From Escherichia coli (lineage in GTDB: Bacteria > Pseudomonadota > Gammaproteobacteria > Enterobacterales > Enterobacteriaceae), in the NCBI RefSeq assembly GCF_965641715.1, contig NZ_OZ282453.1: 64,000 bases of DNA; one strand, given 5' to 3'. Both the position numbers and the translations under genes were made by a program. Positions 11,240-61,848 of this stretch are shown here, one piece after another. The notes under the pieces are model-generated. The model was not told the DNA's origin, did not search any database, and saw only the letters and a list, made by a program, of their open reading frames with translations. Each line of letters begins with the position of its first letter. Within the stretch, counting starts at the first letter, position 1.

Positions 11240-11414
11240 TATCGCGTCCTCAACAATGAATTTTGTGATGCAGTGCCTGGTGCCTCCAGGTGACGTTAAC
11301 CAGTTAACAATTAACGCCGGATACAGAGAATCCACCCATAACACTGTTTTTGGTTTTAACTGTTCCGCGTGCGCTTAGCCGCATTCACCGCATCACAAAA
11401 TTCACTTTAAAAAC

Positions 11415-11466
11415 GGCGGCAGAGCAGTCACGGAGTAAAACTGATACCGCCAAACGTCACCAGAAA
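11415..11466 (-). ncRNA. dicF: DicF small RNA (ftsZ-targeting sRNA)
   Basis: Minus-strand sequence tttctggtgacgtttggcggtatcagttttactccgtgactgctctgccgcc matches remembered DicF; lies directly upstream of dicB in the same operon orientation. Confidence 0.75.
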
Positions 11467-15238: not shown

Positions 15239-15614
15239 TGTTAGGTATTTTAGACGTTACTAGATTAAAAAGCATTAGTTCAGGAGTGAATTGACATTCT
15301 CATTTTTCATGGCACAGGGTAGATCTGGCGTGGTTGTCCGCTTTGTGCCAAGAGCGGACGTTGGTATGCAAGAGCCCTCCAAAAGTTGATGGTTGGTTTG
15401 CAGGGGGGCTTAAAGAAACTGCACTTATCAAGTTGAAGTTCTGTATTCAGCGAAATCGTAGCACTCTGACGATAAGTAACTCCGGTACTCCGCTCTTCGA
15501 TGAAGAACCAGAGTAATCCCCCCGAAAAACCAGCGCATCAAAATTGGATCTTCAGCGGTAGCTTATCGGCTATCGGAAGTACAGGTGTGGATTCGTGGTG
15601 AATTGCTTTGATAA

Positions 15615-15650
15615 TAAACGATTAATACGGAAAAACGTATTAATCATTTA
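15615..15650 (-). terminator. Inverted repeat / putative terminator 3' of the 449-aa gene
   Basis: taaacgattaatacg-gaaaaa-cgtattaatcattta; 15-nt arms with one mismatch, ~23 nt past the stop of the minus-strand gene. Confidence 0.4.
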
Positions 15651-15672
15651 TTAGCTTTTAGTAAACCACAAT

Positions 15673-17022
15673 TTATTCCGTTTTACATATCATAGTAGTC
15701 GATTGGAGAATATAGTTTCTGGGAATGTACTCTTCAAAGTGTTCGTCCTTTTTAAATACATGAACTACATTTGGGAATAATTGATAGTCAACAGGGTGTA
15801 TAGCGTTTGGATTATGGTACATGTACATGGCTGTACACCATGGTTCTTGATAGTTAGGGTCACTTACATCGGCTGAAAATGGATGTGGGGCTGCATCCTG
15901 ATCAGTTTTAACACCACTGACGTACACTTTGAATCCACTCGCCTCTACACCTGCAAGAATTCCCATCCGGTTAAACTTAGGTATGGTTGCTTGAGTAGTG
16001 AGTAAAACGGCAGAAACATAATTATTTTGTTCTGAGCCAAAAAAGTTCGACTTGATACTTCTATTTTCATCTGTATGTCTTTCAATAGAAATGCCTGACT
16101 CAATATCAATCCCGTACAAATAGCTATGCAAGGCTTCGCTTGAGAAGGCCATGGACATTCTTTTTGAATAATCCTGCATTGCTATGACAAATGGTTTGTT
16201 CTTTGTATGGTTGAGTTCCCAGTAATGAACTTTCTCTGGCTCAGGGCAATGCCGGACTTTTTTTAATAAACTTCTTGCAAACTTAAAAGGCATGACATTT
16301 AGAACATGTTTTCTTAATTCATCCATCTGTTCATCGTTAATGACTTTTCTTTCAAGAGGGGCTTCTGCTTCAGCAATGCTTACAGCCTCTACAGCAATTT
16401 CCACTCCAAATTTAGATAGCAGAAAATCTGGTTGATTGTATTCTCTATTCATTTCAAAGTCGAGTTCATAAAATACAGCGTTCAAATATAATTCAAATAA
16501 CCTTGAATTAAATGCATCACTTTGAAAATCCCTTATAAATATTCCATCAGGATCTTTGAACCAGTATGCAAGTTCCTCAAGAACAATATATGCAGGGAAA
16601 TGAGGAGGGTCTTCGAGGAGCATTTTTATATAAACATTCCTTTTTTTCTCTGGGACTTTACTCAAGAATAATGAAAAAGGTTTGGTTGATTCATCGCCTT
16701 GCATGAATGTACCATTTTGGTGCTGCGCCAGCATCTTTGGTATGTCATCGTTCAAATTATTAAGCAAGACATCCATTGAATCAAATGAAGCCAAGACGTT
16801 TATTGCTCTGAATTTTTTATCTAAATCCCGACCTAAGACTATTGCGTTAAAATCTTTATCAATATTGCATATGATTATTGTGGATAACAATGTTATCCCA
16901 TTCCCCTCATATTTAAACCAGCGTATCTCCTCAGAAAATGTCTTAAGGTAAGGTGAGCGACCGTAAAAATAAATATCAAATTGTTCTTTGCTGATCTCAC
17001 TGAAGTGTAATCCTGCGTTCAT
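15673..17022 (-). CDS. Orphan 449-aa protein of unknown function (candidate accessory/defence gene)
   Basis: Single long ORF on the opposite strand to flanking phage genes, AAAGGA RBS, visibly AT-rich, flanked by ~430 and ~440 bp of non-coding DNA; no Walker A, no family recognised. Confidence 0.75.
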   Translation of the reverse strand: MNAGLHFSEISKEQFDIYFYGRSPYLKTFSEEIRWFKYEGNGITLLSTIIICNIDKDFNAIVLGRDLDKKFRAINVLASFDSMDVLLNNLNDDIPKMLAQHQNGTFMQGDESTKPFSLFLSKVPEKKRNVYIKMLLEDPPHFPAYIVLEELAYWFKDPDGIFIRDFQSDAFNSRLFELYLNAVFYELDFEMNREYNQPDFLLSKFGVEIAVEAVSIAEAEAPLERKVINDEQMDELRKHVLNVMPFKFARSLLKKVRHCPEPEKVHYWELNHTKNKPFVIAMQDYSKRMSMAFSSEALHSYLYGIDIESGISIERHTDENRSIKSNFFGSEQNNYVSAVLLTTQATIPKFNRMGILAGVEASGFKVYVSGVKTDQDAAPHPFSADVSDPNYQEPWCTAMYMYHNPNAIHPVDYQLFPNVVHVFKKDEHFEEYIPRNYILQSTTMICKTE

Positions 17023-17464
17023 ACCAATTCCTTTTCAATGAATAATTGGCCTTTAGGAGTGATTCCCTTTGTCTTTAATTCAGTTCTAACTAGTTCTTTA
17101 ATCCAATAGCCTAAGCTCATCATGCAGTTGGATCATAAGACAACGCCCTATAGTGCTCGTGATACTATAGGGCATCTGACCACACTGTTAACTGGAGTAA
17201 CGACTATGGCAGGAATACAGCATAACCAAACTCACCCCAAACTTACATAGCGCTTTCTGGCCGTGAGCATAACAAGGTCCACTCCTCGCTCAAAGCGGAC
17301 TAGAAGGTTAGCTTGTGTCGGACTTTGCGTATTAAATGACTAGTGGTTGAGCCCCATTTCCACAGAAAAAATCAGAGAAACTATACCCAATAGTTGTATT
17401 GAATCACTGACGAGACAGCCTCATATTCATCAGGACTGGTGTACGTCCAATACAGGAGGTTGTG

Positions 17465-17554
17465 GTGCTGGTTCTCAAATGTGCGCTGGCTATTACGGCT
17501 GTAATGGCGATTTATTGTCTTGCTATTGTTCTTATGGATCGCCTTTCTGACTGA
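17465..17554 (+). CDS. Candidate small hydrophobic peptide (29 aa), type-I-toxin-like
   Basis: AGGAGG (17454..17459) then GTG 17465; MLVLKCALAITAVMAIYCLAIVLMDRLSD = one predicted TM helix plus charged tail. Confidence 0.3.
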   Translation: MLVLKCALAITAVMAIYCLAIVLMDRLSD

Positions 17555-17765
17555 TTTCACATTGGCGAGGTAACGGTAGTTAAGTAGAATGGCTGCGGGT
17601 GCTTGAGGCTATCTGCCTCGGGCATGAACACCAACGGCAGATAGAGAAAAGCCCCAGTTAACATTACGCGTCCTGCAAGACGCTTAACATTAATCTGAGG
17701 CCAATTTCATGCTAGACACATGTAGGTTAGCCTCTTACGTGCCGAAAGGCAAGGAGAAGCAGGCT

Positions 17766-17921
17766 ATGAAGCAGCAAAAGGCGATGTTAATCGCCCTGAT
17801 CGTCATCTGTTTAACCGTCATAGTGACGGCACTGGTAACGAGGAAAGACCTCTGCGAGGTACGAATCCGAACCGGGCAGACGGAGGTCGCTGTCTTCACA
17901 GCTTACGAACCTGAGGAGTAA
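17766..17921 (+). CDS. hokD: Hok-family type I toxin (HokD/RelF-like)
   Basis: MKQQKAMLIALIVICLTVIVTALVTRKDLCEVRIRTGQTEVAVFTAYEPEE; AAGGAG RBS; ORF track shows in-frame upstream extension from 17709 (mok-like). Confidence 0.9.
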   Translation: MKQQKAMLIALIVICLTVIVTALVTRKDLCEVRIRTGQTEVAVFTAYEPEE

Positions 17922-17990
17922 GAGACCCGGCGAGGGAGAAATCCCTCGCCACCTCTGATGTGGCAGGCATCCTCAACGCACCCGCACTTA

Positions 17991-18016
17991 ACCCGCTTCG
18001 GCGGGTTTTTGTTTTT
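17991..18016 (+). terminator. Rho-independent terminator after hokD
   Basis: acccgc-ttcg-gcgggt hairpin followed by tttttgttttt. Confidence 0.7.
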
Positions 18017-18137
18017 ATTTTCAACGCGTTTGAAGTTCTGGACGGTGCCGGAATAGAATCAAAAATACTTAAGTAGCGCGCAGGGATAAGAGGGATGGTC
18101 CCTTAAAGGGGAGAGCTAATTATCCGGAAGGATTCTG

Positions 18138-18389
18138 ATGATGAACATCGAAGAACTGCGTAAAATTTTTTGTGAAGATGGCCTCTATGCGGTGTGCGTT
18201 GAAAATGGAAATCTTGTTAGTCATTACCGCATTATGTGTTTGCGAAAGAATGGGGCTGCGTTAATTAATTTTGTGGATGGTCGAGTGACAGACGGATTTA
18301 TCTTGCGCGAAGGTGAGTTTGTCACTTCATTACAGGCACTGAAAGAGATCGGAATAAAAGCAGGCTTTTCAGCTTTTGCAGAAGAATAA
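18138..18389 (+). CDS. Hypothetical 83-aa protein (Rem-position)
   Basis: 83-aa ORF directly after hokD, same size and position as Qin rem in K-12 (identity from synteny only). Confidence 0.5.
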   Translation: MMNIEELRKIFCEDGLYAVCVENGNLVSHYRIMCLRKNGAALINFVDGRVTDGFILREGEFVTSLQALKEIGIKAGFSAFAEE

Positions 18390-18455
18390 ACTCATCTACA
18401 ATCTTGCGCGGGGCTGAACTCCCGCTGAGTAACACCGTGCCACCGGAGAAAACCG

Positions 18456-18734
18456 ATGGCACGCAACGTAAAATATTACAATTCTGATAATTCGCCCGTT
18501 CTTGCCTGCACGCACGAGCGGTATTCTCACGCATTCAAGTCTGAATGGTTCCAACACCCTCCATGCACTGAAGAGCAGGCTGAATGGATAATTCAGTGTT
18601 ACTGCAGGCGCGGATACGAGGTTAAGAAAGCCCTTAGTCTCGACTACCGTCACTGGATAATCTCAGTCAGATTGCCTTACTCCGAACGCCCACCACGTGC
18701 GTCCCGCACTTTCCAGCAACGGATCTGGAGGTAA
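18456..18734 (+). CDS. Hypothetical protein (92 aa)
   Basis: ORF with stop overlapping RBS of the DUF968 gene. Confidence 0.45.
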   Translation: MARNVKYYNSDNSPVLACTHERYSHAFKSEWFQHPPCTEEQAEWIIQCYCRRGYEVKKALSLDYRHWIISVRLPYSERPPRASRTFQQRIWR

Positions 18735-49608: not shown

Positions 49609-50183
49609 TGGCATTCAGAATGAGTGAACAACCACGGACCATAAAAATTTATAATCTGCTGGCAGGAACTAATGAATTTATTGGTGAAGGTGACGCATAT
49701 ATTCCGCCTCATACAGGTCTGCCAGCAAACAGTTCCTATATTGCACCGCCAGATATTCCGGCTGGCTTCGTGGCTGTTTTCAACAGTGATGAGGCATCGT
49801 GGCATCTCGTTGAAGATCATCGGGGTAAAACCGTCTATGACGTGGCTTCCGGCGACGCGTTATTTATTTCTGAACTTGGCCCATTACCGGAAAATATCAC
49901 CTGGTTATCCCCGGAAGGGGAGTTTCAGAAGTGGAACGGCACAGCCTGGGTGAAGGATACGGAAGCAGCAAAACTGTTCCGGATCCGGGAGGCGGAAGAA
50001 ACAAAAAACAACCTGATGCAGGTAGCCAGTGAGCATATTGCGCCGCTTCAGGATGCTGCAGATCTGGAAATTGCAACGGAGGAAGAAATCTCGTTGCTGG
50101 AAGCATGGAAAAAGTATCGGGTATTGCTGAACCGTGTTGATACGTCAACTGCACAGGATATTGAATGGCCAGCACTGCCGTAG
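49608..50183 (+). CDS. tfa: Tail fibre assembly protein (Tfa)
   Basis: 191 aa, ATGA overlap with stf; Tfa-like sequence. Confidence 0.85.
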
Positions 50184-61533: not shown

Positions 61534-61752
61534 GCTCCGTTTAACATTCATTGAGAAAACTGATGCTACTGTGTCAACGATCCGTTATCAGTGCAGGAAA
61601 ATGCCTGTTAGCGTAAAAGCAAAACACAAATCTATCCATGCAAGCATTCACCGCCGGTTTACTGGCGGTTTTTTTTTCGCCGTCATAAAAATCAGGCCCC
61701 TTGTACACAACTGTAACAAGGGGCCGGTTAGGTGAGGGATTATCTCCGTTCA

Positions 61753-61848
61753 TTAGTCATCCCATTTGTGGCTGAAATACGCGGCCAGAAAACCAGAAAA
61801 TAAAATTATTCCCAGTACGGCCATAAAAACATTCATATTACCCAGCAT
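61753..61848 (-). CDS. mgtS: Small membrane protein MgtS (YneM), 31 aa
   Basis: Minus-strand GGAGG RBS then MLGNMNVFMAVLGIILFSGFLAAYFSHKWDD; below ORF-track size cutoff; matches remembered MgtS. Confidence 0.7.
   Translation of the reverse strand: MLGNMNVFMAVLGIILFSGFLAAYFSHKWDD

Follow-up and report, generated by a model that had tools for sequence, protein, structure and literature searches.

Does the short stretch of DNA just upstream of hokD in an Escherichia coli prophage encode a second membrane-active peptide and, if it does, should that peptide be regarded as a type I toxin? The question is raised by a 64,000-nucleotide segment of E. coli contig NZ_OZ282453.1 (assembly GCF_965641715.1; hereafter the window), for which a preliminary description had proposed a 29-codon hydrophobic ORF with a strong ribosome-binding site as a possible toxin or small membrane protein. 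We consider it roughly 75% probable that this ORF is a real gene of Qin/mEp460-like Escherichia prophages, and that its product is a 29-residue microprotein, predicted to cross the inner membrane once, of the family represented by WP_000960667.1 and Escherichia_98807. The peptide is not demonstrably a type I toxin, and we found neither an associated RNA antitoxin nor a translation-blocking mRNA structure.

The small ORF and its start codon

Re-reading of the sequence bears out the basic observation in every part: AGGAGG is present, GTG follows it after five nucleotides, and the frame runs for 29 codons.

17454..17459, plus strand: Shine-Dalgarno sequence AGGAGG, 5 nt upstream of the GTG start
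17465..17554, plus strand: small ORF of 29 codons with a GTG start and a TGA stop (17552-17554), encoding MLVLKCALAITAVMAIYCLAIVLMDRLSD

A program-made list of ORFs begins the frame one codon earlier, at GTG 17462, to give 30 amino acids. Among relatives this codon reads GTG, GTC, ATC, GCC, GTT, TAT or AAC, whereas GTG 17465 is constant except in one lineage, where it is ATG. Because the earlier codon is variable and the later one nearly invariant, GTG 17462 can be ruled out as the start, and GTG 17465, which the preliminary description had also preferred, is the correct one.

The encoded peptide has a GRAVY of 1.74, a best 19-residue Kyte-Doolittle window averaging 2.58, and a hydrophobic stretch of at least 19 residues. 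One transmembrane helix followed by a short charged tail is therefore predicted from its composition. An AGGAGG located 4-9 nt before an ORF of 25-60 amino acids occurs twice in the 64-kb window, and the 29-residue frame is the only hydrophobic one (GRAVY of at least 1.5) of the two. In 100 first-order Markov randomisations of the window, no hydrophobic ORF preceded by AGGAGG appeared. The combination of AGGAGG with a hydrophobic 29-residue frame thus exceeds chance expectation. The flanking DNA, which had been called AT-rich, is so only mildly, with 43% GC compared to 49% for the window as a whole.

Selection on the reading frame

Comparison of related prophages had been proposed as a check on the ORF. 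Viral contigs, phages and E. coli genomes supplied 121 related loci, with 45 distinct alleles among them. The 29-codon frame is intact in 44 of these, and the remaining allele carries an in-frame deletion of 3 nt together with an ATG start, such that the frame is open in all 45 and no nonsense or frameshift change is present among them. Pooled pN/pS is 0.25 in the ORF frame, compared with 0.40-1.39 in the other five. Variable sites fall at codon positions 1, 2 and 3 in the ratio 10/6/16 (Fisher p=0.007), a count that leaves out the end of the ORF fixed by the search pattern. Divergence at synonymous sites of the ORF reaches about 14%, far above that of the adjacent hok leader, and still there are no stop codons. 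Furthermore, GGAGG (17455-17459) is 99-100% conserved across 71 unique upstream variants. Judged by these comparisons, the ORF is a genuine gene under purifying selection and not a chance frame.

Two overlapping frames were considered as sources of this conservation and rejected. A plus-strand ORF of 67 amino acids (17347-17550) has a pN/pS of 1.39, and a minus-strand ORF of 59 amino acids (17381-17560) has a pN/pS of 0.62 and is interrupted by stops in four alleles. The latter frame carries an annotation in phage HannyBb.

The region 17400-17596 is matched in 3056 of 5426 complete E. coli genomes, about 1813 of them at a coverage of at least 80%, and approximately one third of E. coli genomes carry the ORF. 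Four isolated or induced phages carry it as well. Outside E. coli, a scan with one genome per species returned E. albertii and two contigs of metagenome-assembled genomes only, and this distribution restricts the family to prophages of Escherichia. Given this restricted range, and an amino-acid divergence within the family of at most about 32%, the selection tests are of limited depth.

Translation and existing records

Ribosome profiling had also been suggested as a check, and published data bear on it. The BL21(DE3) allele, VLVLKCTLAIVAVMAIYCLVIVLMDHLSD, is an entry in Table S4 of Fesenko et al. 2024 (PMC11188072), placed on the minus strand at NC_012971.2:1591437-1591524 and assigned to the Entero67K cluster Escherichia_98807 (389 members, dN/dS 0.46). 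Retapamulin profiling gave this allele 13 reads at the start site (fraction 1), and 0.90 of the ORF is covered by 38 footprint reads (PMC11188072, Table S4). This support is thin, and the authors themselves caution that low read signals might be spurious (PMC11188072). We checked that the catalogue coordinate corresponds to the small ORF, which in BL21(DE3) lies 213 nt upstream of hokD. The 29-residue ORF is thus apparently translated.

The source of the BL21 transcript merits comment. Relative to REL606, BL21(DE3) has lost a methyltransferase fragment, QueH and the promoter region of the ORF (NC_012971.2:1591437-1591844). The deletion fuses the ORF leader to what remains of the DUF977 gene, and the annotated DUF977 coding sequence overlaps the ORF out of frame. 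Since the putative promoter of the ORF is deleted in this strain, the ribosome signal there derives from an upstream operon transcript.

The claim that standard annotation would miss the ORF holds for most RefSeq records and for all four phage records, in which the frame is left unannotated. It does not hold throughout, because entries such as WP_000960667.1 and ACT39199.1 (REL606) exist, along with ACT43394.1, APK03751.1 ('membrane protein') and others. The exact peptide of the window, which differs from the BL21 allele at five residues, is present in NCBI nr as OSK45992.1, and close variants are labelled 'hypothetical protein' or 'membrane protein'. The entries Escherichia_98807, WP_000960667.1 and ACT39199.1 represent the same gene family and contain the BL21/REL606 allele verbatim. 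These records offer no function and no analysis of context, and they do not connect the gene with hokD or with a cargo slot; a literature search found the peptide named in the running text of no paper. The family is therefore already catalogued and sporadically annotated. We see the contribution of the present analysis as establishing that the ORF is real, fixing its start at GTG 17465, and tying a catalogue entry to its genomic surroundings.

Prophage context and the neighbouring cargo

The host element is a Qin/mEp460-like lambdoid prophage with the gene order repressor, cro, ydaT, replication genes, DUF977 gene, variable cargo, small ORF, hokD, rem, ydfU, rusA and Q. Over 17380-17600 the window and phage mEp460_ev081 are 100% identical. 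The 449-residue gene to the left of the ORF (15673-17022, minus strand) had been described as an orphan. It is instead the known defence gene PD-T7-1, matched over its full length by PADLOC model PDLC04073 (E=4e-157), and it contains no Pfam domain. A promoter-like sequence, TTAACA-16-TATAGT, is present upstream of this gene on the minus strand (17191..17164).

PD-T7-1 occupies a slot of approximately 15240-17277, bounded by the DUF977 gene and the small ORF, and the contents of this slot were compared with those of related loci (L002-L005, L126 and L127). In related prophages it holds a DUF4145 gene, a DUF2326 gene, QueH, a SAM methyltransferase with a hypothetical gene, an MFS transporter with gamma-glutamylcyclotransferase, or other genes. 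The ORF marks the right edge of a hotspot for variable cargo. Replacement of cargo has destroyed the ORF repeatedly, and the ORF is therefore dispensable.

The edge of the conserved module and the signals between it and the end of hokD are as follows.

17277..17300, no strand assigned: hairpin at the left edge of the conserved module, GTCCRC...GCGGAC around TCGCTCAAA, located by conservation profile
17399..17427, plus strand: candidate sigma-70 promoter of the small ORF, TTGAAT-17-CATATT, with a predicted transcription start near 17434
17562..17590, plus strand: hokD promoter, TTGGCG-17-TAGAAT, found by promoter scan and present in 69 of 71 variants
17597..17771, plus strand: 5' leader of the hok mRNA with the sok region, a full-length match to Rfam RF01794 (115 bits, E=5e-27)
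17709..17921, plus strand: mokD frame of 70 amino acids from the ORF list, containing hokD (17766-17921)
17990-18017, plus strand: intrinsic terminator after hokD, AACCCGCTTCGGCGGGTT then TTTGTTTTTA

The conservation profile climbs at about 17277, and it is to this point that different cargo genes adjoin in related loci. In other lineages the edge is formed by a longer hairpin, TCGCTCAAA...TTTGAGCGA.

Predicted expression of the ORF and its relation to hokD

The candidate promoter of the ORF agrees with the consensus at 8 of 12 positions, which is under the cut-off of 9 of 12 used for the promoter scan. Its -10-like ATATT (17423-17427) is identical in 71 of 71 upstream variants, and the pair TTGAAK/CATATT is retained in 58 of the 71, while the spacer sequence has wholly diverged between lineages. 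An invariant -10, a retained -35 and a diverged spacer form the pattern expected of a promoter, and we infer that TTGAAT-17-CATATT drives transcription of the ORF. A minus-strand promoter-like site, GTGATT-16-TATAGT (17408..17380), lies back-to-back with this element in 55 of 71 variants; neither a product nor a matching terminator for it was identified in the lineage of the window.

There is no intrinsic terminator between the ORF and hokD. The first strong plus-strand terminator 3' of the ORF is the one that follows hokD, and the only other terminator-like site on this strand is a weak hairpin within the ORF itself (17489-17508). Without a terminator before hokD, transcripts of the ORF should read through into hokD, and this outcome is likely on the evidence of the DNA.

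The hokD locus of this prophage is complete, with promoter, leader and sok region, and the 70-residue mokD frame, and RefSeq annotates hokD in identical loci. The -35 element of the hokD promoter begins 8 nt after the stop codon of the ORF, and the promoter ends 7 nt before the hok-leader match. That leader belongs to hokD and not to the small ORF. The ORF lies outside the canonical hok mRNA.

The two genes are separable, and each is found without the other. E. coli EC14 carries the upstream region and an intact ORF (D25E), after which unrelated DNA and a TehB-like gene stand in place of hokD. Conversely, many loci, and K-12 as well, have hokD but lack the ORF. In K-12, relBE has taken the place of all sequence left of 17752, such that Qin keeps only the equivalent of 17752-18010 and hokD, now 71 nt downstream of relE, has neither its own promoter nor its leader. 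The K-12 gene is transcribed together with relBE. Loci that have lost the ORF have their breakpoints within about 17510-17535, and all of them keep what lies to the right of about 17528. The last eight or so codons of the ORF therefore coincide with the region upstream of the hokD promoter, and their invariance might partly reflect a constraint on the DNA.

Our preferred reading of the locus, a membrane microprotein gene, can be stated as a sequence of proposed steps. The ORF would be transcribed in the lysogen from its own weak sigma-70 promoter, in the manner of a moron, and the transcript would pass through the hokD promoter and end at the hokD terminator. The peptide would then enter the inner membrane by a helix of approximately residues 2-24, leaving DRLSD as a short tail. 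Its effect should be due to the peptide sequence itself, and most likely it would bind or perturb a membrane component to the benefit of the prophage. Given the position of the ORF between a hotspot for anti-phage cargo and hokD, its function could bear on prophage maintenance, superinfection exclusion or membrane toxicity.

The case for a type I toxin

The E. coli type I toxins TisB, Ibs, Ldr, ShoB, DinQ and ZorO are all shorter than 50 amino acids, form one hydrophobic helix and have strong ribosome-binding sites. The small ORF shares these characteristics, including the few terminal charges. Unlike these toxins, it has no family match, no long structured 5' UTR, no tandem copies and no identified RNA antitoxin. 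The type I toxin reading is drawn from size and hydrophobicity and from nothing else, and is unproven by this analogy, though not refuted.

Searches with two to four alleles against Pfam, NCBIfam and PHROGs gave no curated family at E<=10, including Hok/Gef, Ldr, Ibs, TisB and ShoB, and PADLOC gave no match to the small ORF at E<=0.1. No second hok-leader or sok RNA was found at E<=1 in 16500-18600, where the single RF01794 match is that of hokD, and no Rfam family other than the hokD leader matches at the ORF. A Hok relative or duplicated hok locus was rejected on the same grounds (no PF01848 at E<=10, and a lone RF01794 match that belongs to hokD).

A structured 5' UTR, another of the suggested checks, is not supported. 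The predicted mRNA (17434-17560) folds with an MFE of -31.4 kcal/mol compared to a shuffle mean of -30.1 (z=-0.36), and 17277-17560 gives z=+0.61. The possibility of a structured RNA within the conserved 17277-17460 was likewise set aside (z of +0.61 and +0.41 for the two strands, and no Rfam match). There is no direct repeat from which a divergent RNA could gain complementarity to the ORF mRNA, and a divergent small RNA of this kind was rejected on that basis. A sequence resembling an anti-Shine-Dalgarno element, AGAAGGTT at 17303-17310, was noticed by eye and discarded because it is absent from alleles L002 and L005.

The search for an antisense RNA gave a mixed result. A promoter-like site, TTAACT-18-TAAAAT, lies antisense over the 3' end of the ORF and reaches 9 of 12 consensus positions in 23 of 76 alleles; with TGAAAT at the antisense -10, the allele of the window falls below this score. 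This site and a minus-strand terminator do not consistently co-occur across lineages, and no conserved pair of promoter and terminator emerges. It is important to note that the same consensus scan misses the genuine sok promoter, and its negatives for antisense RNA are therefore weak evidence. In one lineage (L006, L029, L043 and L077) a strong minus-strand terminator is located about 150 nt upstream of the ORF start, where CCCCGCA...TGCGGGG is followed by T5-6 (dG -12 to -18 kcal/mol) between a 27-residue ORF and the 29-residue ORF. In L084, a hairpin of other sequence takes its place.

Of the two options offered in the preliminary description, the small membrane protein is accordingly well supported, because selection acts on this frame only, no allele is disrupted, the Shine-Dalgarno sequence and start codon are conserved, the hydrophobic stretch is present, and Ribo-RET reads exist in BL21. 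The toxin option fares less well, as the testable type I features were not found.

Competing explanations

We regard it as unlikely that the ORF encodes the toxin of a new type I module, in which a small RNA, either antisense or divergently transcribed, would curb translation of a peptide that depolarises the inner membrane. By analogy, the size, single helix and charged tail recall TisB, Ibs, ZorO and Hok, and the ORF adjoins a bona fide type I locus. The conserved GTGATT-16-TATAGT site, the antisense promoter-like site over the 3' end of the ORF and the upstream minus-strand terminator of one lineage are components that such a module might use, and the insensitivity of the scan to the sok promoter softens its negatives. 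Set against these points are the lack of a curated toxin family at E<=10, of a second hok-leader or sok RNA or other Rfam match, and of folding beyond that of shuffled sequences in the mRNA and on both strands of the upstream region. The antisense -10 is missing from the window's own allele, antisense site and terminator do not occur together across lineages, no direct repeat would serve a divergent RNA, and translation is detectable in growing BL21 cells. A broader formulation carries the same low probability: the peptide might be a second membrane-active effector that acts together with HokD or is co-regulated with it, and might share one read-through transcript with HokD or, in some lineages, be controlled in cis by an antisense RNA. 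In the latter form, an RNA of about 235 nt would run from TTAACT-18-TAAAAT over the ORF 3' end to the minus-strand terminator about 150 nt upstream. If true, either case would add to the type I toxins a new family restricted to prophages of Escherichia. As matters stand the toxin label has not yet been earned and describes a minority possibility.

Still less probable is the idea that the ORF serves as an upstream unit of transcription or translation that tunes hokD, by promoter occlusion or by a 5'-extended hok mRNA, with the peptide itself incidental. The 8-nt distance from the ORF stop to the hokD -35, the absence of a terminator between them, the proximity of the two genes in most loci, and the example of K-12 hokD, which without promoter or leader sits downstream of relE, would all suit this arrangement. 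However, a purely regulatory ORF has no need of the amino-acid constraint that is specific to this frame, the ORF is intact where hokD is missing, and the hokD promoter and leader are unchanged where the ORF is deleted. Least credible, in our estimation, is a non-functional chance ORF within a recently spread shoulder of homology, formed by the region upstream of the hokD promoter and used for cargo exchange. Its narrow taxonomic range and low divergence would fit, as would the conservation of the ORF 3' end as DNA even in loci without the ORF, and hydrophobic ORFs readily arise in AT-rich intergenic DNA (PMC11188072). It is contradicted by the 45 undisrupted alleles with their in-frame indel and a start switch that keeps the Shine-Dalgarno sequence, by a pN/pS that is the lowest of six frames precisely in the ORF frame, by start-site reads from ribosomes, and by synonymous divergence of about 14%, above that of the hok leader, without the appearance of stop codons.

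Relationship to known small membrane proteins

We therefore return to the membrane microprotein as the favoured description and place the peptide, which is probably translated, among the uncharacterised small membrane proteins of prophages. It resembles AcrZ, CydX, MgtS and YnfT (the last from Qin) in having one transmembrane helix and fewer than 50 residues, in its detection mainly by start-site profiling and in being often missed by annotation. It differs from this group in being prophage-borne and accessory, occurring in about one third of E. coli and being absent from K-12. Since K-12 lacks the ORF, small-protein screens performed in K-12 could not have found it. An unnamed gene for a membrane peptide is thus carried by approximately one third of sequenced E. 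coli, including the B strains REL606 and BL21.

Given its location, comparison with Hok/Gef proteins (PF01848, RF01794) is also instructive. The ORF adjoins hokD on the same strand, and the composition of its helix is similar to that of the N-terminal helix of Hok. Unlike Hok, it has no periplasmic C-terminal part of about 25 residues and no overlapping frame comparable to mok. Lambdoid morons provide another parallel, since they too are accessory, lie in the early-right/nin region beside variable cargo, have a promoter-like element and are patchily present. The ORF differs from them in having no terminator of its own before hokD.

Other small hydrophobic ORFs and RNA matches

Small membrane ORFs recur beside hokD, as far as can be judged from their predicted products. 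Directly upstream of the hokD promoter in L137, L166 and L183 there is an unrelated 27-residue hydrophobic ORF (MTWPEAFTTTGIAMAAALVVYSICSWG or MSWPEAFTTVGIALAVALVVYLICRWG) with a GGAGG Shine-Dalgarno sequence, and in L006, L077, L043 and L084 this ORF stands in tandem before the 29-residue one. For no Pfam family does it score above the curated cut-off, and its exact sequences are absent from the protein collection searched. A very hydrophobic ORF of about 59 residues, MKNALQFLFVAFWLFASCMPIIFTARYMEKVDVLILMFGHINALFLGVFMAVMCIEYWR, apparently with two helices, precedes the hokD leader pattern by about 76 nt in L136, L133 and L153. The recurrence of hydrophobic ORFs of 27, 29 and 59 residues just upstream of the hokD promoter fits the notion of a second effector.

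Structured RNAs elsewhere in the window were recorded as well. Rfam matches above the gathering score comprise DicF at 11414-11465 (minus strand), two tRNAs downstream of the Q gene (21134-21383, plus strand) and, all on the plus strand, STnc100, the cspA thermoregulator, IS009 and STnc560 at 22083-22273, 25371-25787, 49951-50149 and 61545-61759, in that order. A weak isrK-like match at the 3' end of hokD (17930-18011, plus strand; 25.7 bits compared to a gathering score of 50, E=0.006) is probably a mere similarity of terminator hairpins. True isrK and C4 antisense RNA matches are located elsewhere in the related loci L043 and L077.
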